Shown here piece after piece: positions 13,137 through 60,199 of a stretch of 64,000 nucleotides of DNA. Location: contig JBAZLK010000004.1 of assembly GCA_041650335.1 (NCBI GenBank), positions 15,990 to 79,989 on the forward strand, read 5' to 3'. This DNA comes from Patescibacteria group bacterium. GTDB taxonomy: Bacteria; Patescibacteriota; Patescibacteriia; JAHIZJ01. The notes beneath the pieces were generated by a model that did no database searches, was not told the DNA's origin, and saw only the letters and a program-made list of their open reading frames with translations. Position 1 is the stretch's first letter, and every line of letters starts with the position of its first letter. A program made the position numbers and the translations under genes.

Positions 13137-13200
13137 CAAGCATATTTCACAAAATGTTGGGAATCCATTATAATTCATTGGAAGCCTTTTTTATTTTTCT

Positions 13201-14337
13201 ATGGCAAACAACCATCTGACATGGCTGGAAATCAGCAAATCAGCCTTATTAAACAACCTCGCCGCCTTTCATGAACTGCTTGGAGCAGGCGTTTCAATAA
13301 TGCCGATTGTGAAAAGCAATGCCTACGGACATGGCGTTCTTGAGGTAGCAAAGATTGTCGCGCCGACGTCTGATTGGCTCGGCGTCGTGAGTTTGGATGA
13401 GGCGCTGGTAATACGAAAGTCTGGAATTAAAACGCCCATACTCGTCCTGAGTTTTTTTAACGAGAAGAATATTTCCCTAGCAGCAGGCAAAAATATTGTT
13501 CTCCCAGTTTTTGACCTTGAAGGAGCCAAGACGATTTCTCGGGTAATGAAAAATCTTCACAAAACCATTTCGGTGCATTTGAAAGTTGACGTCGGCACAA
13601 CGCGCCTCGGAATTTTACCAAAAGACGTATTCAGGGTTGCGAAAGCCGTACAGAAGCTCCCTGGTCTAAAAATTACAGGCATTTTTTCCCACCTGGCTGA
13701 TTCGGAAAACTTTAACCAAGAGTATACCAATAAACAAATCAAGACTTTTAACAGCATTTGCCAAGCACTAGAAAAGAATGGTTACGATACTAAAGTCCGA
13801 CATCTCGCGTGTTCAGCCGCGACGATCATAAATCCAAGCTCTCGAAACAACCTTGTTCGAATCGGCATAAGTCTGTATGGTCTATGGCCGTCAAAAGATA
13901 CAAAAGCCCTGTATGAACGGCATTTTAATGGTTTCAAACTTCGGCCGGCCCTGAGTTGGCATACGTCAATAATCCAGCTAAAAAATGTTCCGATAAATAC
14001 CTACGTGGGCTATGGCTGTACCTACAAAACCAAGCGCCGCACCAAGATTGCTGTTTTGCCGATCGGGTATTGGGACGGATATGATCGAAAATTATCGAAT
14101 CACGGGGAAGTGCTGATACGCTCGCGCCGGGCACGCGTGCTGGGCAGAATTTGCATGAATATGACCATGGTTGACGTTACCGATATTCCTGGCGTCAGAA
14201 TAGGGGAGCGGGCGACGCTCATCGGCGTGCAGGGGAAAGAAATGATCAGCGCTGAAGAACTTGCCGAAAAAGCCGGAACGATAAATTATGAAATTGTGAC
14301 AAGAATAAATCCATTATTGAAGAGAAGGGTAGTCTAA
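13201..14337 (+). CDS. alr: Alanine racemase
   Basis: PLP-lysine motif VKSNAYGHG, 378 aa, adjacent to ddl. Confidence 0.85.
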   Translation: MANNHLTWLEISKSALLNNLAAFHELLGAGVSIMPIVKSNAYGHGVLEVAKIVAPTSDWLGVVSLDEALVIRKSGIKTPILVLSFFNEKNISLAAGKNIVLPVFDLEGAKTISRVMKNLHKTISVHLKVDVGTTRLGILPKDVFRVAKAVQKLPGLKITGIFSHLADSENFNQEYTNKQIKTFNSICQALEKNGYDTKVRHLACSAATIINPSSRNNLVRIGISLYGLWPSKDTKALYERHFNGFKLRPALSWHTSIIQLKNVPINTYVGYGCTYKTKRRTKIAVLPIGYWDGYDRKLSNHGEVLIRSRRARVLGRICMNMTMVDVTDIPGVRIGERATLIGVQGKEMISAEELAEKAGTINYEIVTRINPLLKRRVV

Positions 14338-48244: not shown

Positions 48245-50068
48245 CTACCAGCTGTGGTCGAGGCTGATCCCCGCCCACTGCCGGTCCGTGTGGTACACCT
48301 TGCCGTTGACCAGATCCCGGTCGACGGCATCATTCAGGTACTTGAAGTTCCCCTTCAGACGCCACCACCGGTTGATCCGATACTCAATTCCGATCCCGGG
48401 GCCACGCCAGTCGAATGACCAGCTCGGGTTGTCGTACGACCAGGAGTCGTACGAGGCGTAGACGATGATGTAGTGGTTGAACTTGTACCCGATCCGTCCC
48501 TCGAACACCTGCATGGTGTCGGCCGGGAAGGACAGGGTCTGGTTGTCGAAGTGCCGTGACTGTCCGCGGCGGTACTGGACGTCGTACGACGCCCGGAAAT
48601 ACAACGGGTGCGGTTCAATCGAGAAGCTCCCCCCGATCTCGCGATCAAGGTTTGTTCCGCGCTTGAACATCGCCTCGTAGTACCCCAGCTTCGGGGTAAT
48701 GCCGAGCACTCTCGCGTATCCTCCGTAACCATCGAAGTACCGTGCGTCCTCGCGCGCCTTGATGGTCGTGGGCGAAATCTGCCGGTAGTTGATGAACTCG
48801 CGCTGGCCGGCCAGATACCAGGCGCCGGCTTCAAAGCCCGTACGCCAGGCACCCGCCTCGTCGCCGAGGATCCACCCCCGGCCGCCGAGCCGGTAATCGC
48901 CGGACACGTGATTCTTGTCCAGCGACGCCTGCTCGATTCGGATGACAGTCGAGAGATCGCGTAGGCGACCCCAGCCGTCGTAGCCGGAAATCCGTGGCAG
49001 CCACTCCAGTCCTCCCAGGAACGAATGCTGTCGGTCAAGGTTACCCTTCCGGTCTTTCCCGCCCTGGGAATACCGGTAGTCGAGCCACCAGACGCCGCCC
49101 GAGACGAACTCGTGAGACACCTCAGGCTCTTGGGCGTAGAACGGCCCTTCCACCTTGGGCTGTCGAGCCGACTCAGGCGGCGACACCGTCACCTGGCTTT
49201 CGGCTTCGTCCACGAACGCTCGCCTGACATAGGCGGCGTTGCCGCAGACGACGAACCGATACAGGTGGTACCGGTAACCCTCGTAGTCCACAAAGGGATA
49301 TTCGAGGGCAACGGTCCGGTCGACCGACTGTCGCGACTTCGGGTCTTTCCAGAAGCAGGCCGTCCTGCCCCAGGAAATGTTCTTGCCAAAACACAGGCCG
49401 TCGACGATGAGCGGTGACGCCTCAGTTGAGTACATCCAGACACTGTCCGGCGTACTCGCTTCAACGAGGCTCACCCACTCCGCCCGAACCTGGTCCGGTA
49501 CCTTGAAGGACTTGATCTGGTCCTTGAGCGGCGTCCGAGCCGGATCACCGCCGAGGAATTCCCAGCGACGGATGACCTGTTCGGGCTTCTGCGTGAAGAG
49601 ATGCTCGCCCGGCAGGACATACCGTCGATCAAGACCATTCCAGGCTCGAAGAGTATCAGCCGGAACGCCCAGCTCCTTCGAGAGGGCTTTCCAGCCTTCA
49701 CCCGGCTTTACGACTCTGGTGGGTGGCAACCGGATGGGTTCCGGCTGCTTTTCCGAGCGTTTCAGTTCGAGCTTGGTATCCTGGACGGCGACCCAGTTGG
49801 TTGAGTCGCAGTAGGCCAAGACCCGGTACTTCACCCAGAAGGCGTCCTTCCCCGTCTGTTCGACGCAGAAGTCCGTGGCCTTGGGCACCTGTATCCTGAC
49901 CACGCGGTCGTTCACCAGAACGCCCACGTCAACCGTGTTCCTGCCATTCGGCAAGCTCACGGCCTTCAGGTTGATAACGGTGCCCACCGGGGGCTGCGTG
50001 CACTGAGCCAGTGCATTGGTCGAGAAGACCAGCGCGCAGACGAACAACAGAACCGTGAACTGCTTCAT
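48245..50068 (-). CDS. High-G+C secreted protein with LysM-like domain and C-terminal beta-barrel-like region (outer-membrane-protein-like)
   Basis: signal peptide MKQFTVLLFVCALVFSTNALA; LysM-like segment VKPGEGWKALSKELGVPADTLRAWNGLDRRYVLPGEHLF; C-terminal ~300 aa with alternating hydrophobic/aromatic pattern rich in Y/W/G/R ending in ...ISLDHSW (terminal aromatic); SD GGAGGATTCGGTC before ATG. Confidence 0.5.
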   Translation of the reverse strand: MKQFTVLLFVCALVFSTNALAQCTQPPVGTVINLKAVSLPNGRNTVDVGVLVNDRVVRIQVPKATDFCVEQTGKDAFWVKYRVLAYCDSTNWVAVQDTKLELKRSEKQPEPIRLPPTRVVKPGEGWKALSKELGVPADTLRAWNGLDRRYVLPGEHLFTQKPEQVIRRWEFLGGDPARTPLKDQIKSFKVPDQVRAEWVSLVEASTPDSVWMYSTEASPLIVDGLCFGKNISWGRTACFWKDPKSRQSVDRTVALEYPFVDYEGYRYHLYRFVVCGNAAYVRRAFVDEAESQVTVSPPESARQPKVEGPFYAQEPEVSHEFVSGGVWWLDYRYSQGGKDRKGNLDRQHSFLGGLEWLPRISGYDGWGRLRDLSTVIRIEQASLDKNHVSGDYRLGGRGWILGDEAGAWRTGFEAGAWYLAGQREFINYRQISPTTIKAREDARYFDGYGGYARVLGITPKLGYYEAMFKRGTNLDREIGGSFSIEPHPLYFRASYDVQYRRGQSRHFDNQTLSFPADTMQVFEGRIGYKFNHYIIVYASYDSWSYDNPSWSFDWRGPGIGIEYRINRWWRLKGNFKYLNDAVDRDLVNGKVYHTDRQWAGISLDHSW

Positions 50069-51290: not shown

Positions 51291-51316
51291 AAAGAACAGA
51301 CTCCAGAGTCTGTTTA
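51291..51316. terminator. Perfect palindromic hairpin (AACAGACTC-cag-GAGTCTGTT) acting as terminator of GT2 gene
   Basis: 9-bp perfect stem, 3-nt loop; on minus strand followed by CUUUUAUUGU. Confidence 0.5.
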
Positions 51317-51393: not shown

Positions 51394-52359
51394 TTACCCT
51401 TTCCTTTTTCTCAGTCCCGAAATGGCGAATATCGGGAAATAGCTGGCAATGTAATAGAGCAGCATTTTATTCATTAGTCCCTTTTTCCTAAAATATTTTC
51501 GGCAAAATTCCCTTACCCGGGGAAATCGGTTCAGCCGAAAGGCAGCTTGTATTTCTCCCCGCAGGATCGTTGGGTTATCTGTGTTTTCCGGATCCAGACT
51601 TAAGATGGCCTGGGGCTGGAACGATTCGTACGTATCCTGTCCGCCCTTTTGCCTTTCGTGGTAGAACTGACGGGCTTTTTCTGCAAACATTTCCACTTTT
51701 CCTAAATTTCGCAGCGTCTGCGTATTGGCTCCAGAGCGGTATTGGATAAGGGTCTGCGGCAGACATACAAACTTCTTCTTTTGTGTCAGCAGTCGCAACA
51801 GTAAATCGTAATCATCGACAAAGTGCATTTTCGGACGGTAAAAAATATTTCCCGGATCATTGCGGTACATTACGCTTGAGTGGATGAAAATGTTTCTTTG
51901 CAGCAATTGTTTCGCAATAGTTTCGTGATCGAACGGCGGTCTGACAGAATCAACAACGTGTCCAGAGTCATCAATCCGATCTGCAATCGAAGCAACAAGA
52001 AATATATCAGGATGACTTTCCAAATACGCCACCTGATCATGAAGTCGATCCGGCAGCGATATGTCGTCGTGATCGTTGATGGCGATATACTTTCCCGTAG
52101 CCGAACGCAAGGCTTCGTTACGGCTAACCACCTGGCCAGTGTTTTGTGAATGTTTGTAAACGATAATGCGCCGATCACGAGCCTGGTATTTTTCAATGAC
52201 CGCGACGGTTCGATCGGTTGAGGCGTCATCAATAATAAGCAGCTCAAAGTTTTGATAGGTTTGTTTTACGAGCGCCGATATCGTCTGGCTGATAAATCGT
52301 TCGGCGTTATAGGCCGGAATGATCACTGAGACTAACGGCGTCTTGGTAACATTTTCCAT
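51394..52359 (-). CDS. Glycosyltransferase family 2
   Basis: N-terminal VSVIIPAYNAERFISQTISALVKQTYQNFELLIIDDASTDRT (GT-A DxD region); 321 aa. Confidence 0.8.
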   Translation of the reverse strand: MENVTKTPLVSVIIPAYNAERFISQTISALVKQTYQNFELLIIDDASTDRTVAVIEKYQARDRRIIVYKHSQNTGQVVSRNEALRSATGKYIAINDHDDISLPDRLHDQVAYLESHPDIFLVASIADRIDDSGHVVDSVRPPFDHETIAKQLLQRNIFIHSSVMYRNDPGNIFYRPKMHFVDDYDLLLRLLTQKKKFVCLPQTLIQYRSGANTQTLRNLGKVEMFAEKARQFYHERQKGGQDTYESFQPQAILSLDPENTDNPTILRGEIQAAFRLNRFPRVREFCRKYFRKKGLMNKMLLYYIASYFPIFAISGLRKRKG

Positions 52360-52540
52360 GAACTCTGAATTTATCCTGTTATTTCGATAATACTTTGACG
52401 ATCAAGTTAAAAAATATCACCACGAGCCCCGCCAGAATCACGAGCAGCGCCAAACAGCCGATCCCGGCGATATACATCAAACGACTCCGGTGTTTCCGGC
52501 GTTCGAGCTCAAGAGACCGTGAGTCAAGCCTTTGGTCCAT

Positions 52541-54034
52541 TTATCGAATGGAAAATATTTTTATCTTACGCAGAGCCTGGATGGCCAGCTGGAGGCGCTC
52601 CGTGCTTTGCGCGTAAATCGTGTATGTCGGATCGCCTTTTTTGATTTTGTTCCCGATGCGCTGATGCAAATGCAAACCGGCAAGTTTTTCCTCAGGGGCA
52701 CCAAGAAAGCGCGCAACATCATCAATCACCGCGTCGTCGATATCTTCCAGCGTTCCGCTCCGGTTGGCATAATATCTCTTTTTATACGCGCCGAGGGTGA
52801 CACGGTCGGCTTTGATATTTGGGTTGCCGCCTTGAAGGGCGATGATTTTCTGCATCTTCTTCCAGGCGCGGCCAGAATCTAAAATTTGATAGGCGACCTC
52901 ACGGCCCTTCCCTTTCCGGCACTGACCGCACAGTTCCAGGAGTTCGCCGGCTAACGCAATCGACTTCCGTTCCAGGTCACGCGGCCGCAAGGGATGCCGT
53001 TGCAAAACGCGCAGGACATCGCGCGCTTCCAGGGCCGGACCGACGCCGCGGCCGACCGGTTCGCGCGCCTCACGCATTTGAACTTTTATTTTCATGCCGA
53101 ACCGTTTTCCAAGATAGAGGAATTTCCGCTCGACCTCCCAGGCCAGCTTAACATTCGGGATCTTCGTCGTCGGCCCAACCGGCATATCGATAATCAAATA
53201 CTTGATCCCCATGGCGACTTTCTTGGCCATGATGCTGACAATCATCTTGTTGTAGGGCTCGATACCGAGCGGATGCGAAGCCCGGATAATCCGGTCGTCC
53301 GCCGGCGCGACGTTCAACTCGCCACCCCAAACCAAGCAGCAATTATTCTTCTTCACAAAGTTCGTTATTCGCCGAACCGTATGCTCAACAGGCGCCAGGA
53401 CTTCCATCGTATCGGCTGTGCCGGCGGCTGAGGTGACCGCACGCGACGATGTTTTTGGTATGACCAGGCCGGTCGAGGCGACAATCGGCACGACGATCAT
53501 TGAGGTGCGGTTGCCCGCTAATCCGCCGACGGAATGTTTATCTACTACCTTGCCCCGAAAATTCAAGCGTTCACCCGTTTCAGCCATAGCCTTTGTAAGG
53601 TAATACAGTTCCTCGTCTGAATAGTGGCGGGCAAAACTGCTGGCGATAAAATAGCTGATTTCGCTTTGCCCGAGCCGGCGATCAACAATGTCTTTTATAA
53701 TCGAGTATATTTCTTTGTATGACAGCCTTTTCCCGAGCAGCTTTTTAATAATGGCCTGGATCGAGGCGGGCCGCGCCAGCACCTTTACCTGGACGATTTC
53801 ACGCTGGCGCAATGGGTATTCCTCCCAGATCTCGCGAAACAACCCGATTTCCCCCGGCCGCACTTTTGAGTTCGTAAAGTCGGCTTCGGCAATGACCCGA
53901 CGCTTGCCCCAGCGTATCTCTAAATCATCGCCTGGTTGAACGCCAAAATTTCGCGCTTCTGATTCGCGCAACACCGCGACAAGCGCTCCCTCTGCTTTAA
54001 AGTCAAGTTTCTTGCTTTTTAAGAAAAATGGCAT
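52541..54034 (-). CDS. AMP phosphorylase (thymidine phosphorylase family, archaeal-type)
   Basis: 497 aa with N-terminal extension relative to thymidine phosphorylase; DKHSVGGLAGNRTS phosphate-binding motif; immediately downstream of RuBisCO and R15P isomerase genes. Confidence 0.8.
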   Translation of the reverse strand: MPFFLKSKKLDFKAEGALVAVLRESEARNFGVQPGDDLEIRWGKRRVIAEADFTNSKVRPGEIGLFREIWEEYPLRQREIVQVKVLARPASIQAIIKKLLGKRLSYKEIYSIIKDIVDRRLGQSEISYFIASSFARHYSDEELYYLTKAMAETGERLNFRGKVVDKHSVGGLAGNRTSMIVVPIVASTGLVIPKTSSRAVTSAAGTADTMEVLAPVEHTVRRITNFVKKNNCCLVWGGELNVAPADDRIIRASHPLGIEPYNKMIVSIMAKKVAMGIKYLIIDMPVGPTTKIPNVKLAWEVERKFLYLGKRFGMKIKVQMREAREPVGRGVGPALEARDVLRVLQRHPLRPRDLERKSIALAGELLELCGQCRKGKGREVAYQILDSGRAWKKMQKIIALQGGNPNIKADRVTLGAYKKRYYANRSGTLEDIDDAVIDDVARFLGAPEEKLAGLHLHQRIGNKIKKGDPTYTIYAQSTERLQLAIQALRKIKIFSIR

Positions 54035-54042
54035 CGGTTATA

Positions 54043-55284
54043 TTATCTCCAATAATGTAATGCGGTCTGTAATTCTGGATGCGTTTTCGCGTAATCCGAC
54101 AATCGTTGATGCGACGTGACGGCCTCAACGGCCTGTTTCGCCGCCCGAGCGCCAGCCAATGTCCCGCCGGGGTGGCCGTGAATGCCGCCGCCAAAGTTAA
54201 TGATCACGTCCGGTCCAATAATTTTGAGCAATTTCGGCACCAGCCGAGGATGGAGTCCGCCGGAAGCGATCGGCATGACCGGTTTTATATTTCCCCAGGG
54301 TGACTTCAAAAAGGTATTGATAGCGACTGTCTCCCGCGCCGAACCTTCCATTTTTCCAACGACTGTGCCGCTATGGAGTTGATCAACGCCAGCCAAACGG
54401 GCGAGTTTTGCGATCACGAGCATGGAAATACCGTGCTTCGGATCGCGGGTCATGACCGAATGCATGGCTCGATGAGCATGGATGATCAGTCCGGTCTTCG
54501 CCTGCCGGACCGCCTGAACACCGGCGAAACCCGCTGTCATAATATCTATCATCGCGCAGTTGCCGCCAGATTGCTTAATGAAACGCGCCCGTCGGATCAT
54601 TTCGCTGGCCGGAGCAGTAATATTAAACACACACATTTTTCGCTCACCGGTTTTCTTTTCAATTTCCTTTGCTAATCGTAGTGTTTCGCGAACCCTTTTT
54701 TGAAACGGATTAAATCGTTGATCGGTTAAATTCTCGTCGTCCTTCACGAGATCGGCCCCGCCCAGAAAACAGTCAGCGGCAAATTTCGCATGTTCGCGCC
54801 ACGACAAACCCATTTTCGGTTTCATGATCGCGCCGATGAGCGGCCGTCTTGGTACACCGAGCAGGCGCCGAATGCCAACGATACCGTGCGCCGGTCCCAG
54901 GAACGAATGAAGGAACGCCGCCGGCATTTTTAAGTCCTCAAGACGAAGCTTGGTAATGAGTTTCATCGAAAATACGTTCCCAGCGACACTCGATAAGAGT
55001 TGCGGGATATTACCAGGCTCGAAGAGTTCGAGCGGATAGGCGATCCGGACAAGCTTGTCGTTCGGCGATACGGAAATAACTTTTGCTGAGAGTCGACGAA
55101 ACATTGCCGCCTTCATCGTCTTGGTTGTCGTCCACGTGCCGACTGACGATTCGGCGGCCACGATTTGGGCACTGTCTCGCAATGGAACGGGTGATTCAAT
55201 TCGAAATGTGACGATAATATGAGTCGCCGTGTTTATGCGTTTTCCGAGGGCGAGATAATTTTGTTTGAGGTAACCGCTCTTCAT
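54043..55284 (-). CDS. rbcL: Ribulose-1,5-bisphosphate carboxylase/oxygenase large subunit, form III-like
   Basis: 413 aa; GTWTT, KPKMGLS, GGADLVKDDEN (carbamylated Lys region), RAMH, SGGLHP...FGGGIHGHP motifs; no small subunit gene; AMP-pathway neighbours. Confidence 0.9.
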   Translation of the reverse strand: MKSGYLKQNYLALGKRINTATHIIVTFRIESPVPLRDSAQIVAAESSVGTWTTTKTMKAAMFRRLSAKVISVSPNDKLVRIAYPLELFEPGNIPQLLSSVAGNVFSMKLITKLRLEDLKMPAAFLHSFLGPAHGIVGIRRLLGVPRRPLIGAIMKPKMGLSWREHAKFAADCFLGGADLVKDDENLTDQRFNPFQKRVRETLRLAKEIEKKTGERKMCVFNITAPASEMIRRARFIKQSGGNCAMIDIMTAGFAGVQAVRQAKTGLIIHAHRAMHSVMTRDPKHGISMLVIAKLARLAGVDQLHSGTVVGKMEGSARETVAINTFLKSPWGNIKPVMPIASGGLHPRLVPKLLKIIGPDVIINFGGGIHGHPGGTLAGARAAKQAVEAVTSHQRLSDYAKTHPELQTALHYWR

Positions 55285-56195
55285 TTCAGTAACCAGGGGT
55301 AATGCTTATTTACATACGCCCGCACCCGGCTCGGCTCAATCAAGCCGAATTCAGTAACAAGTCGGGTAATATTCTTCGCTGGTACGCGGTCAAATGCGAA
55401 ATTAATGATATTGACACCGACCGGCGCATCGGCCCAGACTTCTTTTGCCGACCGACGCTCAATAGGGGTGGCGGCCGATCGGCTGTATTTTAATAAACTG
55501 CAAACGATATAGACCGGGACCCCTTGTTCGGACGCCGCCAGTGTCAGGCCATAACTCCCAATTTTGTTTATTATTGATCCATCGGCGGAAATGACGTCAG
55601 CGCCGATGACAACCGAATCCATCATGAGCTCTTTGCCGGAAGCCTCGCTGACCAAAAACGGACCGGCACCGTCGACGACAATCGTAACCGGTATTCTTTT
55701 TGCCTGTAACTTCTTCGCAGTAATATGCCCCTGATACAGCGGCCGTGTTTCGGACGCGAAGACGTGAAATTTCTTTTTTTCGTGCGTTTTAACGAGAAGC
55801 TGTTCGACGGTTGACGAATGACAATGGGTGTAGACTTTGTCACCTGTTTGAATGAGGGCCCGGCCAAGGAGACTGATGCGTTCTTGGGTTTGCACCAGCA
55901 AGAGAAGGAATTCAGCGGTTGATCTTTTGAGAATGAATTTTGTCGGTTGGCGCCGGACGCGGTCCCAAACGAACCGCAGGCCGTTCTGAGCCAGTGGTTC
56001 GGTCGGCCGGTTGTTCCGCCAGAGATAGTTCCGAGCGGCCTTCATTTGAGACAGCCAGTTCGTGGTCCGTCTCAGTTGCAACCGAACGCCAAAGTCGCAA
56101 TAGGCGTTGAGCGTTGCCCGGGCAACCTCGGTGGCGCCTTGATATTTGAACGTTTGGATATCTCGCAAAACTCGATCAAGCTGTCCGTATGACAT
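55281..56195 (-). CDS. Ribose-1,5-bisphosphate isomerase (eIF-2B alpha/beta/delta-like, e2b2 family)
   Basis: 304 aa; eIF2B-like fold signature (VYTHCHSSTV, VIGADVISADGSIINKIGS); 4-nt overlap with rbcL. Confidence 0.75.
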   Translation of the reverse strand: MSYGQLDRVLRDIQTFKYQGATEVARATLNAYCDFGVRLQLRRTTNWLSQMKAARNYLWRNNRPTEPLAQNGLRFVWDRVRRQPTKFILKRSTAEFLLLLVQTQERISLLGRALIQTGDKVYTHCHSSTVEQLLVKTHEKKKFHVFASETRPLYQGHITAKKLQAKRIPVTIVVDGAGPFLVSEASGKELMMDSVVIGADVISADGSIINKIGSYGLTLAASEQGVPVYIVCSLLKYSRSAATPIERRSAKEVWADAPVGVNIINFAFDRVPAKNITRLVTEFGLIEPSRVRAYVNKHYPWLLK

Positions 56196-56222
56196 TGGCG
56201 ATACCGCAACAATTATTATGTA

Positions 56223-56588
56223 TTAGCCGAGCAGATTCTTAATCTTTTCGCACAGGTCGGCGAGTTTAAGGTTTGCCTTGACGAAATAATCCTGGGCGCC
56301 AAGCGCCTTTGCTTTCGTCACCTCGTTTGCCTCGCCAAAATTCGAAAGCATAATAACGGGAATATCCTTCGTGGCTGGGGCGCTCTTTAATTCCCGGATC
56401 ACTGAAAAACCGTCTTTTTTCGGCATCCGAATATCAAGCAGGATGAGTTCGGGCTTAAACGGCCCAACCTTTGCTAAAGCTTGGACGCCGTCCATCGCCG
56501 TTTCAACGGTATGTTTCGTTTTCCGAAGCTTATTTGTTAAGGCTTCAGATAAAAATATCTCGTCCTCAACCACGAGTATTTTCGCCAT
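56223..56588 (-). CDS. Single-domain response regulator (CheY-like receiver)
   Basis: 121 aa; acidic pocket DE...D (VVEDE, LLDIRMP), conserved K (KPF... S/T) pattern. Confidence 0.8.
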   Translation of the reverse strand: MAKILVVEDEIFLSEALTNKLRKTKHTVETAMDGVQALAKVGPFKPELILLDIRMPKKDGFSVIRELKSAPATKDIPVIMLSNFGEANEVTKAKALGAQDYFVKANLKLADLCEKIKNLLG

Positions 56589-56592
56589 CGTT

Positions 56593-56973
56593 TTAGCGTT
56601 TAGCGTATTCGTGAATCTTGTTCTTCAGTTCGTCCAGATTGGTGCGGGTTTTCACGAGATATTCAGCCGCGCCTAGATCCATGGCTTTTTTTTGGTAGCT
56701 TGTGTCGTCAAGATTCGTTAAGACGATCGCCGGGATACTCTTTAGCTCGCTGTTTTCTTTCAACCGTCGCAAAAACTCAAAACCGCTTACCCTCGGCATC
56801 AAGAGATCAACGAGAATAACATCCGGCTTCGCTGAGGCCGCCATGGCCAAACCCGCCTCACCTTCTCGAGCGACGTGAATGCTAAAGTTGTTCTTTTCTA
56901 GTTTCGTTTGCAGCGCTTTGCTGATAATCTCCTCATCCTCGACCACCAGTACGGTAATGGGTTGAGTAGACAT
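56593..56973 (-). CDS. Single-domain response regulator (CheY-like receiver)
   Basis: 126 aa; VVEDEE, ILVDLLMP phospho-acceptor Asp context. Confidence 0.8.
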   Translation of the reverse strand: MSTQPITVLVVEDEEIISKALQTKLEKNNFSIHVAREGEAGLAMAASAKPDVILVDLLMPRVSGFEFLRRLKENSELKSIPAIVLTNLDDTSYQKKAMDLGAAEYLVKTRTNLDELKNKIHEYAKR

Positions 56974-56980
56974 AGTATTG

Positions 56981-59413
56981 TTAGATTAATGTTTTTTCGC
57001 CTTCGCGTCGCTTACTGCCGGCCAAGGGGAGCGTAAAGAAAAAGCTTGTCCCCTGCCCTTCGACAGATGTAAACCAGATTTTGCCGCCAGACGCGTCAAC
57101 GACTGATTTCGCCACATAGAGGCCAAGTCCCGTGCCTTCCGTTTGGAGCGTGATCACATTGTCGGCCCGGAAAAACTTCTTAAATACTTTTGACTGCTGG
57201 GCTTTTGGTATACCGACGCCGGAATCAAATATTTCAAATTGGAGATACTTACCGGCTTTCGTGATCCGCACGCCGGTCGTACCGCCTTCCGGCGTATATT
57301 TTACGGCATTAGAAAGGAGGTTTTGAAAGACCTGACGAATAAGCTTTGAGTCGATTTTAATCTTCGGCGTGCCGCCCGGCAGTGTCTTGAAAACCGTTTT
57401 GATATTCTTCTGTTTGATGAGCGGAGTCAATTCGAAGAGAACGCTTTTGACCATGCCGTCCATATCGCTGCTGACCGGCTCGATGGCGATCGTGCCGGAC
57501 TCGATCCGAGAAACATTGAGCAGGTCATTGACCAACGCGATCATCCGCTCGTTCGATTTATAGGTATGGTCAAGATACTCGTGCTGCTCGTCGTTGAGCT
57601 TGCCGGCGTCGCCATCGAGCAACATCTCCAAAAACCACTTTGAGGCCGATAACGGCGTCCGTAATTGGTGCGAGGCGACGGAGACAAATTCTGACTTCAT
57701 TTTATCAATTTCCTGTTCTTTTGTCACATCCCGGAGCACGACAACGCCTCCTTTAATGACGCCGTGCGCGTCGATCAGCGGCGCGGCCGTAATGGTGACC
57801 GGAATTTCTTTCTTTGCTTTGTTTATGATGGCGTAGTCACCGGTTCCCGTCACGATGATCTGGCCGGTTTTAATCGACTCCATGATCGGCGAATATTCTT
57901 TATTGGCATCGATGAGTTTCAGACTCTTTAAGACAATAATATTATCAAGCTGCGAACCGATGACCTCGGTATTTGCATAGCCGAGCAGTTCACTGGCCGC
58001 TTCGTTGCAGGCGATAAAGGAGAGATTTTCGTCCAATGCCAAGACGCCATCGCCGACATTCGCCAAAATTGATTCCGATTTATTTTTTTCCCGTTCAATC
58101 GAATGTTGGGCGCGTTCAAGATCTTTCACTTTTTGGCGCAACTCCTGCGTCCGCTTCGCCACCAGATCCTCCAGTTTCGTGTAATATTCCAAGAGCTTAT
58201 CTTTCATGATAATAAAGCTGTGGGTAAGATCGCCGATTTCATCGTCCCGTTCGGGCGCCTTGATGTCGATATCCAGGTTGCCACGGCTGATCCGATAGGC
58301 ATTCGCAGCCAGCTTCTTTAATGAATTTACAATCTGCCGCGTGATGATGCTCGTGACAATAAAAACGATGATCAAGGCTATTCCGCCAACAATAATATAC
58401 CGCCACTGGAGTCCCGAAATATTTTTTTGTATTTCTGATTCAACGATGCCCCGGGCAATGCTTCCAACAACCTCATTGTTGCTGTCGCGTAAAGGAATAT
58501 ACGACATTAAATACCAATCGTTCACCTCAAATGCCCGGCCTGAAAAATTATTTTGCGAGACGTAAACGGTATTGACGACGTCTTCCGAGGCGAGAGTGCC
58601 TTCGGCCGATTCGTTCCGGTCGCGATACGTTTGGGTAGTCGCAACCCGGGCGTCGTATAAATAGATGGTGGCGATGCCGCCGCTTTTTTGGGTAACGTCC
58701 TCGAGAAGCGTTACGTCATTGTTCATAAGGATGCCGCTGACGACCGCGCCAATCACCGCGTTGTCTTTCTTTATCACCGATACCGCCGTCATGAATAACC
58801 CGTCCGTTTCCGCCTTTTTATCACGCCAGCCGGTTTTCTGAAGTTCAGTCGTCCGACGAGTTACCTTCGCTTGTTCTAATAATTCTGGGCTCAGAACAGC
58901 CAGTTCGGCGCTGGGAATGACTTCAATTGATTTAACCGGGAGACCGCTCTTTATAACACCATCTACGAATCCCCTGATCGATAATTTTTTCCCTGTTTGG
59001 GCGTTCGTGCTTGCAGCCAGTATTTGCGCTTTGGTATTGACGATGGCGATGAAACTTGCGTCTCGCGCGCTCTGTTCATCGATAAGCGCTTCCTTCAGCG
59101 ACGCATACTCCGCCAGGTTACCGATGGTTGCCAGGTCAGGCTGATTGCTTAATGTTTGACTTCCATTTTTGATGGCTGTTCGCTGGGCAAAAGAATCAGT
59201 ATCAAAATAGAGTCTCTCAAGGCTATTATTAAAAATAAGGGACAATGCTTCCCCCTGCTGATTGACCCGCAGTTGTATTTCTTTTTTTAAACTCGCCGAG
59301 GTGTTTGATAGTGAAACGTAAATCAATGCTCCAAGCATAATAGTCGCTAACAGCGACACTTGGAATATCACCCGACGCGTTAAACTACTGCTAAACGGTT
59401 TCCACATATTCAT
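56981..59413 (-). CDS. Sensor histidine kinase (TM - Cache-like - TM - HAMP - PAS - HisKA - HATPase_c)
   Basis: 810 aa; two TM segments flanking ~280-aa periplasmic domain; H-box SHQLRTPL; N, G1 (DSGVGIP), G2 (GTGLGL) boxes. Confidence 0.85.
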   Translation of the reverse strand: MNMWKPFSSSLTRRVIFQVSLLATIMLGALIYVSLSNTSASLKKEIQLRVNQQGEALSLIFNNSLERLYFDTDSFAQRTAIKNGSQTLSNQPDLATIGNLAEYASLKEALIDEQSARDASFIAIVNTKAQILAASTNAQTGKKLSIRGFVDGVIKSGLPVKSIEVIPSAELAVLSPELLEQAKVTRRTTELQKTGWRDKKAETDGLFMTAVSVIKKDNAVIGAVVSGILMNNDVTLLEDVTQKSGGIATIYLYDARVATTQTYRDRNESAEGTLASEDVVNTVYVSQNNFSGRAFEVNDWYLMSYIPLRDSNNEVVGSIARGIVESEIQKNISGLQWRYIIVGGIALIIVFIVTSIITRQIVNSLKKLAANAYRISRGNLDIDIKAPERDDEIGDLTHSFIIMKDKLLEYYTKLEDLVAKRTQELRQKVKDLERAQHSIEREKNKSESILANVGDGVLALDENLSFIACNEAASELLGYANTEVIGSQLDNIIVLKSLKLIDANKEYSPIMESIKTGQIIVTGTGDYAIINKAKKEIPVTITAAPLIDAHGVIKGGVVVLRDVTKEQEIDKMKSEFVSVASHQLRTPLSASKWFLEMLLDGDAGKLNDEQHEYLDHTYKSNERMIALVNDLLNVSRIESGTIAIEPVSSDMDGMVKSVLFELTPLIKQKNIKTVFKTLPGGTPKIKIDSKLIRQVFQNLLSNAVKYTPEGGTTGVRITKAGKYLQFEIFDSGVGIPKAQQSKVFKKFFRADNVITLQTEGTGLGLYVAKSVVDASGGKIWFTSVEGQGTSFFFTLPLAGSKRREGEKTLI

Positions 59414-59709
59414 TAGGCATGAATGCCAAACCGCATGATGATCTTTTCATACCAGCGCTGCTGTTTCGACAGATTATCTTCCGAATGTAGCGTTGGCATA
59501 ATAAAAACCCACTCAGCTCGCTGGGCGGGATTACATACTCTAAACCGTTGTGAATTTCTTTTTATATTTATTTTCATATTATAATTATAGCATATCTACT
59601 GATTTTTGTCTAGCAAAAATTCGATATTCACATATTCCTGTATCTAGCCAAAAAATAATAAACCCTGTAGGATACCGATGGAGTACGACTTGCCCAAGAG
59701 GAGGTGTCC

Positions 59710-60060
59710 ATGAAACGTCTTGTCGGTCACGCGATCGCGTTCTGGACCTGTAACGCCATCGCTCTGATACTCGCTGTTTTGACTCTCTGGCACTTCATTT
59801 ACCGCTCTGACACATCCCCCACGCCCTGGCTTCTGCTGTTCGGCTGGATGGCGTTCACGGTCGTGGCAACGTTTGTTCTGCAGGAAACAGCGCAATCAAT
59901 GATCATGGGGCTTTCGTCCTCCCTCGGGTCACAGACCTTTGCGCCGCTGCTCATCTGCCTCCTCGTGCTCTTTCTCCCTGGCCTGGTCTTCTTCGGCCTG
60001 TACCATTGGGCGCGGCACGCCTACCAACAACGCACCCTGGAACATCACTCTCACGGGTAA
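59710..60060 (+). CDS. Small hypothetical membrane protein (3 TM)
   Basis: start set to ATG 59710, 7 nt after AGGAGG (59697-59702); three hydrophobic helices. Confidence 0.4.
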   Translation: MKRLVGHAIAFWTCNAIALILAVLTLWHFIYRSDTSPTPWLLLFGWMAFTVVATFVLQETAQSMIMGLSSSLGSQTFAPLLICLLVLFLPGLVFFGLYHWARHAYQQRTLEHHSHG

Positions 60061-60122: not shown

Positions 60123-60171
60123 AAAAACTTCCATAATTAGGGGTTTTTCGCTTTTGTGGATAACTACCCCT

Positions 60172-60199
60172 TGACGTTCGGTTTTTGTTCGGTATAATG
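60172..60199 (+). promoter_or_regulatory. Strong sigma70-like promoter (TTGACG-16 nt-TATAAT)
   Basis: TTGACG 60172-60177, TATAAT 60194-60199; ~70 nt upstream of four-helix-bundle gene. Confidence 0.5.

Follow-up and report, generated by a model that had tools for sequence, protein, structure and literature searches.

Six genes on the minus strand of a DNA stretch of 64,000 nucleotides (nt), hereafter the window (contig JBAZLK010000004.1), from a small uncultivated bacterium of the Patescibacteria place a sensor histidine kinase and two response regulators directly upstream of the genes of an adenosine monophosphate (AMP) salvage pathway. The genes span positions 52541-59413 and encode, in the order of transcription, the kinase, response regulator 1 (RR1), response regulator 2 (RR2), an isomerase of the e2b2 family (gene e2b2), the RuBisCO large subunit (rbcL) and AMP phosphorylase (AMPpase). 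The initial annotation of this DNA had described six tightly packed minus-strand genes; the open reading frame (ORF) listing of the window has the ORFs exactly as positioned there, and Pfam and NCBIfam searches gave the same identities and order. The main features, from the promoter to the last salvage gene, are listed below with protein lengths in amino acids (aa) and, in brackets, the basis of the assignment.

59584-59612, minus strand: sigma-70-type promoter (TAGACA, 17-nt spacer, extended −10 TGcTATAAT)
59413-59577, minus strand: conserved leaderless small ORF, 54 aa, beginning MKINIKRNSQRFRVCNPAQRAEWVFIMP... (multi-genome alignment)
56981-59413, minus strand: sensor histidine kinase, 810 aa (Pfam, hydropathy, AlphaFold2 model)
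56593-56973, minus strand: RR1, receiver domain only, 126 aa (Pfam)
56223-56588, minus strand: RR2, receiver domain only, 121 aa (Pfam)
56196-56222, minus strand: RR2-e2b2 spacer, 27 nt, no hairpin
55281-56195, minus strand: putative ribose-1,5-bisphosphate (R15P) isomerase, divergent member of the e2b2 family, 304 aa (PF01008)
54043-55284, minus strand: RuBisCO large subunit, assigned to form III-c, 413 aa; its start overlaps the e2b2 stop by 4 nt
52541-54034, minus strand: AMPpase, 497 aa, full length with N-terminal domain (TIGR03327)

The spacers from the kinase to AMPpase are, in turn, 7 nt, 4 nt, 27 nt, a 4-nt overlap (e2b2/rbcL) and 8 nt. The tight packing described earlier thus stands, although its upper figure (gaps of 4-33 nt) was slightly off, the largest gap being 27 nt. 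Since the same packing recurs in relatives, we consider it real and not a chance pattern. The G+C content at third codon positions (GC3) is alike over all cistrons (0.55-0.62). A recent foreign origin of the signalling genes was considered and rejected, as their GC3 is no different from that of the neighbouring genes.

The salvage enzymes and the signalling proteins

The phosphorylase scores 549.6 with the equivalog model TIGR03327, above the cutoff of 535, and its residues 5-496 align to positions 2-492 of the 500-position model. The isomerase matches PF01008 (IF-2B/e2b2) at E = 1e-46; its score with the equivalog model TIGR00511 (166) is far under the cutoff of 314. Its best solved relatives are the R15P isomerases 5yfj and 3a11 (1e-32), ahead of MtnA (2e-21). 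When it is aligned to the P. horikoshii R15P isomerase, Cys125 and Asp200 fall in the catalytic Cys/Asp column, whose Asp is marked by a D-to-N mutant chain.

The RuBisCO score with the type III model TIGR03326 (494.7) is 2.8 bits short of the cutoff (497.45), and that with the subfamily model PRK04208 (485.9) exceeds the cutoff of 438. In the alignment to P. horikoshii 2cwx all catalytic motifs are intact (KPK, KDDEN, HRAMH, HSGT..GK, SGG and GGG); by the retained motifs of the carbamylated Lys and the metal ligands, the predicted protein is a true RuBisCO and not a RuBisCO-like protein. The closest named homologues are labelled Form III-c (P0033, 64% identity; P0052 and P0071, 54-57%), and archaeal form III structures are more distant from the window protein than these. 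Earlier described as ‘form III-like’, the protein does belong to the form III family, and by its closest named homologues the more precise label appears to be form III-c. An identical RuBisCO protein has been annotated in a metagenome-assembled genome of the Patescibacteria (the DNA of the window is part of ENA assembly ERZ27247363). A fusion protein (P0112) is also among the RuBisCO homologue matches.

Together, AMPpase, R15P isomerase and form III RuBisCO convert AMP, Pi and CO2 into adenine and two 3-phosphoglycerate. The pathway goes back to work on Thermococcus kodakarensis (Sato 2007; Aono 2015, both cited in PMC6389311), and form III-c was defined in bacteria of the candidate phyla radiation (CPR), whose genomes frequently have e2b2, RuBisCO and deoA in succession and in some cases as fusions (Jaffe et al. 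2018, Mol Biol Evol, PMC6389311). The window has genes for the same three predicted enzymes in the same consecutive order, with RuBisCO between isomerase and phosphorylase and with the catalytic residues kept. The initial annotation had taken the nucleoside-salvage RuBisCO pathway as already established in archaea and CPR bacteria, and the trio is indeed published for CPR bacteria in this order. What sets the window apart from the published cluster is that in its clade, and there alone, the trio is immediately preceded on its own strand by a small ORF, a kinase and two receivers; the terms ‘histidine kinase’, ‘regulator’ and ‘two-component’ have zero occurrences in PMC6389311. The metabolic trio adds nothing new, and the attached signalling genes are the only candidate novelty.

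As a separate observation, the RuBisCO segment (window 54100-55600) is the most diverged part of the locus in comparison with its closest relative, L001: identity is 78-82% at the nucleotide level and 84% at the amino acid level, vs amino acid identities of 97% for AMPpase, 95% for RR1 and 100% for LexA. This divergence of rbcL hints at allelic recombination or lateral replacement, in line with the published lateral transfer of CPR RuBisCO.

The kinase has Pfam matches to sCache_3_3/Cache_3-Cache_2, HAMP, PAS, HisKA and HATPase_c. Hydropathy places one transmembrane (TM) helix at about aa 14-36 and another at about aa 337-360; between them lies an extracytoplasmic double Cache region (about aa 37-335), and HAMP, PAS, HisKA and HATPase follow the second helix. 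The phosphorylation and ATP-binding motifs are intact: the H-box SH582QLRTPL, with His582, and the N, G1 and G2 boxes NLLSNAVKYT, DSGVGI and GTGLGL. An AlphaFold model of residues 30-340, built with an alignment of orthologues, has a mean confidence score (pLDDT) of 90.8 and consists of a long stalk helix followed by two PAS-like modules. In a Foldseek search against the PDB it matched the dCache domains of DctB, PctA, Tlp3, Mlp24 and McpH with probability 1.0. As modelled, the sensor is a dCache domain between two TM helices; the extracytoplasmic Cache sensor of the initial annotation is therefore retained with its flanking helices, as a double and not a single Cache.

The modelled domain has the two PAS-like modules on a long helix, the flanking TM helices and the Cache Pfam matches in common with these dCache sensors. 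It differs from them in sequence (10-15% identity), with TM-scores of ~0.45-0.5, and in having extra helices at about aa 50-87. The matched sensors bind C4 dicarboxylates (DctB), amino acids (PctA, Tlp3 and Mlp24) and purines (McpH, uric acid). Modelling of the Cache domain had been suggested as a route to the ligand class; the fold matches span sensors of such different ligands that no class can be inferred from them.

Close homologues of the kinase are confined to the clade of the window: among 5.8 billion proteins its orthologues form only eight clusters (58-93% identity), and the next matches have ~30% identity and cover the kinase core only. With the sensor domain as query, 1.84 billion representatives yielded one orthologue cluster, followed by generic Cache sensors, and a metagenome scan with the sensor-domain alignment found nothing beyond locus L090.

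Inside the kinase gene there is a promoter-like match, GTGACA-17-TAAAAT with a TG (window 57699-57727, minus strand; L084 7530-7558; L087 7525-7553). It coincides with the codons of a conserved VTKEQEIDKM motif before HisKA and is probably a by-product of coding.

Both response regulators have a complete phosphorylation pocket (E12/D13, D56, T86 and K108 in RR1; E8/D9, D52, S82 and K104 in RR2) and are ~41% identical to each other. No DNA-binding or enzymatic output domain was found in either protein of 121-126 aa, Response_reg being the only Pfam match, and the spacers of 4-27 nt around them leave no space for a lost one. RR1 and RR2 therefore cannot be transcriptional regulators of the operon, which speaks against the idea of direct transcriptional control.

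In the PDB the receivers match the PleD receiver, RR468 (3dge) and DivK, with E-values from 1e-13 to 1e-21. Known systems of this general kind are HK853-RR468 of Thermotoga, DivJ/PleC-DivK of Caulobacter and the CheY type. Common to all are a HisKA kinase with intact boxes and receivers of ~120 aa with the Asp pocket and no output domain; the window differs in that no chemotaxis, cell-cycle or flagellar partners are encoded nearby and in that the sensor is clade-specific. The similarity of the window receivers to RR468, DivK and the PleD receiver is generic only. In a search for the origin of the signalling genes, the closest receivers outside the clade (42-46% identity) were found in unrelated kinase clusters.

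Distribution and origin of the signalling cassette

The signalling cassette consists of the leaderless 54-aa ORF, the double-Cache/HAMP/PAS kinase and the two receiver-only regulators, situated directly upstream of the salvage module. Relatives of the window RuBisCO were collected by a scan of one genome per species (80 loci). The six window proteins were compared with the loci by tblastn, and further loci came from look-ups of RuBisCO and kinase homologues.

Among the 80 scanned loci the full order kinase-RR-RR-e2b2-rbcL-AMPpase is present in L001 (RuBisCO identity 84%) and L002 (67%) only. The look-ups added the same order in L083 (72%), L087/L088 (65%), L084 (63%) and L090 (58%); the contigs of L083 and L088 end before or within the AMPpase gene. 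Loci L091 and L092, on short contigs, are limited to lexA, the kinase and the beginning of the regulator genes. Nine further loci (L003-L011) and several archaeal ones have e2b2, rbcL, AMPpase or parts of this set with no kinase or regulator, and about 70 other form III RuBisCO loci, CPR and archaeal, have no attached two-component system.

The initial annotation had named uniqueness to this contig as a finding that would speak against its reading. This is not the case: no fewer than seven related lineages of Patescibacteria have the same order, with kinases as little as 58% identical, but these form one clade and no independent recurrence was seen. All occurrences share a wider gene order, with an amino-acid permease, dinB (IMS) and lexA on one side and Wzz, two or three unknown genes, Wzy and a GT4 glycosyltransferase on the other. 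As the neighbourhood is not recurrent in phylogenetically independent lineages, its conservation amounts to inheritance in one family-level group and is therefore weak evidence for a functional link.

The same wider order is found in L085/L086 (RuBisCO 63%), where lexA is followed, after ~1 kb, directly by e2b2-rbcL-AMPpase; no remnant of kinase or regulators was detectable in L085 by tblastn at E up to 0.01. In a neighbour-joining tree of concatenated e2b2, RuBisCO and AMPpase (1066 gap-free columns, 300 bootstraps) the cassette-bearing lineages are monophyletic (96% bootstrap), L085 is their sister (100%) and the other CPR loci fall outside. Because the carriers form a clade with L085 as sister, one event accounts for the distribution, either a gain at the base of the clade or a loss on the L085 branch. 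The likeliest course is one insertion between lexA and e2b2 in the common ancestor of the carriers, with one loss from the sister lineage as the alternative. With sister lineages in the same neighbourhood, one with the cassette and one without, the locus is a well-delimited natural comparison.

A second link between AMP salvage genes and two-component proteins was considered at L011, from a different Patescibacteria lineage, where an OmpR-family response regulator is encoded ~500 nt downstream of AMPpase (L011 14604-15269) and where rbcL is separated from AMPpase by the insertion of a DNA methylase gene and an unknown gene. We judged this link to be incidental: the regulator is an orphan of the OmpR type with no kinase, and L011 is the only such locus with a regulator nearby.

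Transcription of the locus and the relation of the cassette to AMP salvage

The promoter upstream of the kinase agrees with the consensus at 11 of 12 positions and has a TG before the −10. In an alignment of eight genomes (the window and seven relatives) the −35 (T/G)GACAAA, the 17-nt spacer and the extended −10 TGCTATAAT are invariant, and promoter scans of L084 and L087 give the same site as that at window 59612-59584. The small ORF begins with an ATG 6 nt past the −10 and ends in a stop codon that overlaps the start codon of the kinase (TAATG). An ORF of 49-54 aa is present in seven of the eight relatives, with the core P-x-Q-x-x-E-W-V-F-I-M-P kept and many synonymous third-position changes; gene callers place ORFs of 53-66 aa at this position in L083 and L088. 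We take the 54-aa ORF to be a real leaderless small gene because the conserved core is accompanied by so many synonymous differences. It matched no Pfam family at E up to 10, and its single-sequence AlphaFold2 model is of low confidence (pLDDT 68).

The conserved element CCC..CAG..GAGTGGGTTTTT upstream of the kinase was also considered as an RNA terminator. This was rejected as the primary constraint given the conserved reading frame, the synonymous changes and the lack of a T-run in L090; a dual role, coding plus terminator, is conceivable. Terminator-like hairpins with a T-run were flagged inside the leaderless small ORF in L084 and L087.

Downstream of AMPpase, three further minus-strand features extend the predicted transcription unit.

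52379-52540, minus strand: single-TM small ORF, 53 aa, abutting the AMPpase stop
51394-52359, minus strand: family-2 glycosyltransferase (GT2), 19 nt past the 53-aa ORF
51295-51314, minus strand: terminator-like site, 8-bp stem plus CTTTTATTGT

The 53-aa ORF, with its TM segment at about aa 24-50, was called in L081, L082, L087 and L090 and has tblastn matches in L001, L084, L087 and L090; a Pfam search at E up to 10 gave only noise. The GT2 gene follows it in the window and L001 only.

The terminator-like site at 51314-51295 is the first intergenic one on the minus strand downstream of the 59.6-kb promoter; the remaining minus-strand matches in the range from 59.4 to 51.4 kb are short stems that lie within genes. 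The unit predicted between these two ends is ~8.3 kb long with nine cistrons, longer than the six-gene span. The junctions TAATG, ATGA and TAAATG, at which genes overlap or abut, suggest translational coupling, and most cistrons have no Shine-Dalgarno (SD) sequence, consistent with reliance on such coupling. Scans of the whole window with Rfam, at its gathering thresholds, and for tRNAs were negative; neither the kinase nor e2b2 has a known riboswitch or leader RNA ahead of it. Judged by sequence, the window probably yields a single transcript from the promoter at 59612-59584 to the terminator-like site at 51314-51295.

The stretch from 56.2 to 56.6 kb, which takes in RR2 and its junction with e2b2, had been singled out earlier as the place to look for a terminator or promoter. 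Neither a terminator nor a strong promoter was found in the 27-nt spacer of the window. This spacer is 25-27 nt long and free of hairpins in the window, L001 and L083 (z near 0); in the window its fold energy is −5.9 kcal/mol (z = −0.16).

Several points weigh against a transcript shared by cassette and salvage genes throughout the clade. A weak promoter-like match (9 of 12 positions) at window 56242-56215 overlaps the RR2 stop; its sequence is not conserved among relatives. In L084 and L087 the spacers are 61-63 nt long and contain a stable hairpin (GCCUUCUCG ... GGGAGG) with a U-run behind it (z = −2.85 and −3.33), which could stop or attenuate transcription and so split the unit in those relatives. 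The hairpins lie at about 9053-9082 in L084 and 9048-9084 in L087; L090, with a spacer of 53 nt, has a weaker, non-significant version (about 13175-13205, z = −0.23), and L002, with 80 nt, has a T-run only. The structure could be a terminator, an attenuator or a hairpin masking the ribosome (SD) site; the terminator scan did not flag it in L084 or L087. The sister locus L085 has a strong promoter, TTGCAT-16-TGTATAAT, 7 nt before the e2b2 ATG (L085 9040-9090), which is of the leaderless type, like the promoter of the 54-aa ORF, and a comparable internal e2b2 promoter may conceivably exist inside the cassette clade. Co-transcription is predicted from gene spacing, and the tree is a neighbour-joining one of three proteins only. 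Co-transcription thus appears likely in the window and less assured across the clade.

On balance, we lean slightly towards the view that a known salvage module and a lineage-specific cassette share a promoter, that is, shared transcription and no demonstrated control. Because neither RR1 nor RR2 has a DNA-binding or enzymatic output, the link to AMP salvage is probably one of co-expression from a common promoter and not of demonstrated regulation. The signal-dependent control of flux from nucleotides to glycolysis that the initial annotation suggested is at this point a hypothesis. In the mechanism that we propose the kinase would bind an extracytoplasmic ligand and autophosphorylate on His582; the phosphate would pass to Asp56 of RR1 and Asp52 of RR2; and the receivers would act at the protein level, through protein contacts or with one of them serving as a phosphate sink. 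What is new here is modest: a clade-specific signalling cassette and a leaderless small ORF in the same predicted operon as a known pathway. The likelihoods that we attach to this view and to those weighed next overlap and are not meant to add up to certainty.

The two gene groups may instead be unrelated neighbours, a possibility that we rate as real although less than probable. The cassette, with its own promoter, would then end before e2b2, the AMP genes would use an internal promoter, and the two-component system would serve the envelope, attachment or division. The spacer hairpins with a U-run in L084 and L087, the weaker form in L090 and the bare T-run in L002 fit such a division, as do the promoter-like match at the RR2 stop and the strong e2b2 promoter of the sister lineage. 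Envelope polysaccharide genes (Wzz, Wzy and glycosyltransferases) lie just downstream in all relatives, and metabolic enzymes normally need far more expression than a kinase. The short hairpin-free spacers of the window, L001 and L083 speak for one unit, however; the match at the RR2 stop is a weak one whose sequence is not kept among relatives, and the spacer hairpins of L084 and L087 passed the terminator scan without being flagged.

A closer relationship, in which the kinase senses an external, possibly host-derived metabolite and the phosphorylated receivers bind the enzymes or the small ORF products and so gate the flux from AMP to 3-phosphoglycerate post-translationally, seems unlikely to us. 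In its favour, the gene order persists while kinase and RuBisCO each diverge to 58% identity, the genes of the window are closely spaced with coupled junctions, and the receivers have intact phosphorylation sites and no other output. CPR kinases are also rare (~0.29 per 100 genes; PMC10805038), so that a kinase directly upstream of one given operon is not often expected; yet every kinase must neighbour something. Against it, the association goes back to one event in a clade sharing its wider gene order, where conservation may be inheritance, and the sister lineage and some 70 other form III RuBisCO loci run the pathway without a two-component system. The single other locus with a regulator nearby, L011, has an orphan of the OmpR type and no kinase, the nearest receivers outside the clade belong to unrelated kinase clusters, and the sensor fold gives no ligand class.

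In the strongest form of this proposal, which we consider quite unlikely, kinase and receivers, perhaps with the 54-aa protein, would be a dedicated module through which an extracellular and possibly host-derived metabolite turns the RuBisCO-dependent AMP salvage enzymes on or off at the protein level. CPR bacteria (Patescibacteria) have few regulators and rely on partner organisms for their nucleotides. If true, the module would be the pathway's first described regulator in bacteria, as well as an instance of receiver-to-enzyme control in a reduced-genome symbiont; a sensor gating the salvage route would tie an external cue to a central carbon-gain pathway and offer a rare handle on host sensing by CPR bacteria.

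Neighbouring features

Three of the related loci are of the Patescibacteria type in metagenome-assembled genomes that are labelled otherwise (L001, L003 and L009; two ‘uncultured Gammaproteobacteria’ and one ‘Saccharibacteria’). L001 has 87% nucleotide identity to the window over 14 kb. The labels are probably taxonomic mislabels or binning artefacts.

The region at 46-50 kb of the window is unusually GC-rich (0.59-0.62 vs ~0.47). A 607-aa ORF at 48245-50068 (minus strand) shows a local dip to 62-72% nucleotide identity with L001 at 49000-49600; it has no Pfam match at default thresholds and a weak LysM match at a relaxed threshold, and may represent a rapidly evolving protein of the cell surface.

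Between lexA and the kinase promoter the window has genes for a 118-aa protein with three TM segments (59704-60060, plus strand) and a member of the 23S-rRNA-IVP family (PF05635; 60269-60616, plus strand). Both are present in the window, L001 and L083 (a 7-kb contig that stops short of lexA); L002 has the IVP gene only, and L084, L087 and L090 have neither.

A direct repeat GAAC-N7-GAAC (CCGAACAAAAACCGAACG; window 60171-60198, plus strand, with the exact repeat at 60176-60191) sits in the spacer of a TTGACG-16-TATAAT promoter ahead of the 23S-rRNA-IVP-like gene and lexA. It is conserved upstream of lexA in L002, L084, L085, L087, L090 and L092, and is the sole exact CGAAC-N6-CGAAC match in the window. 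We take this repeat to resemble the direct-repeat SOS box of Alphaproteobacteria.

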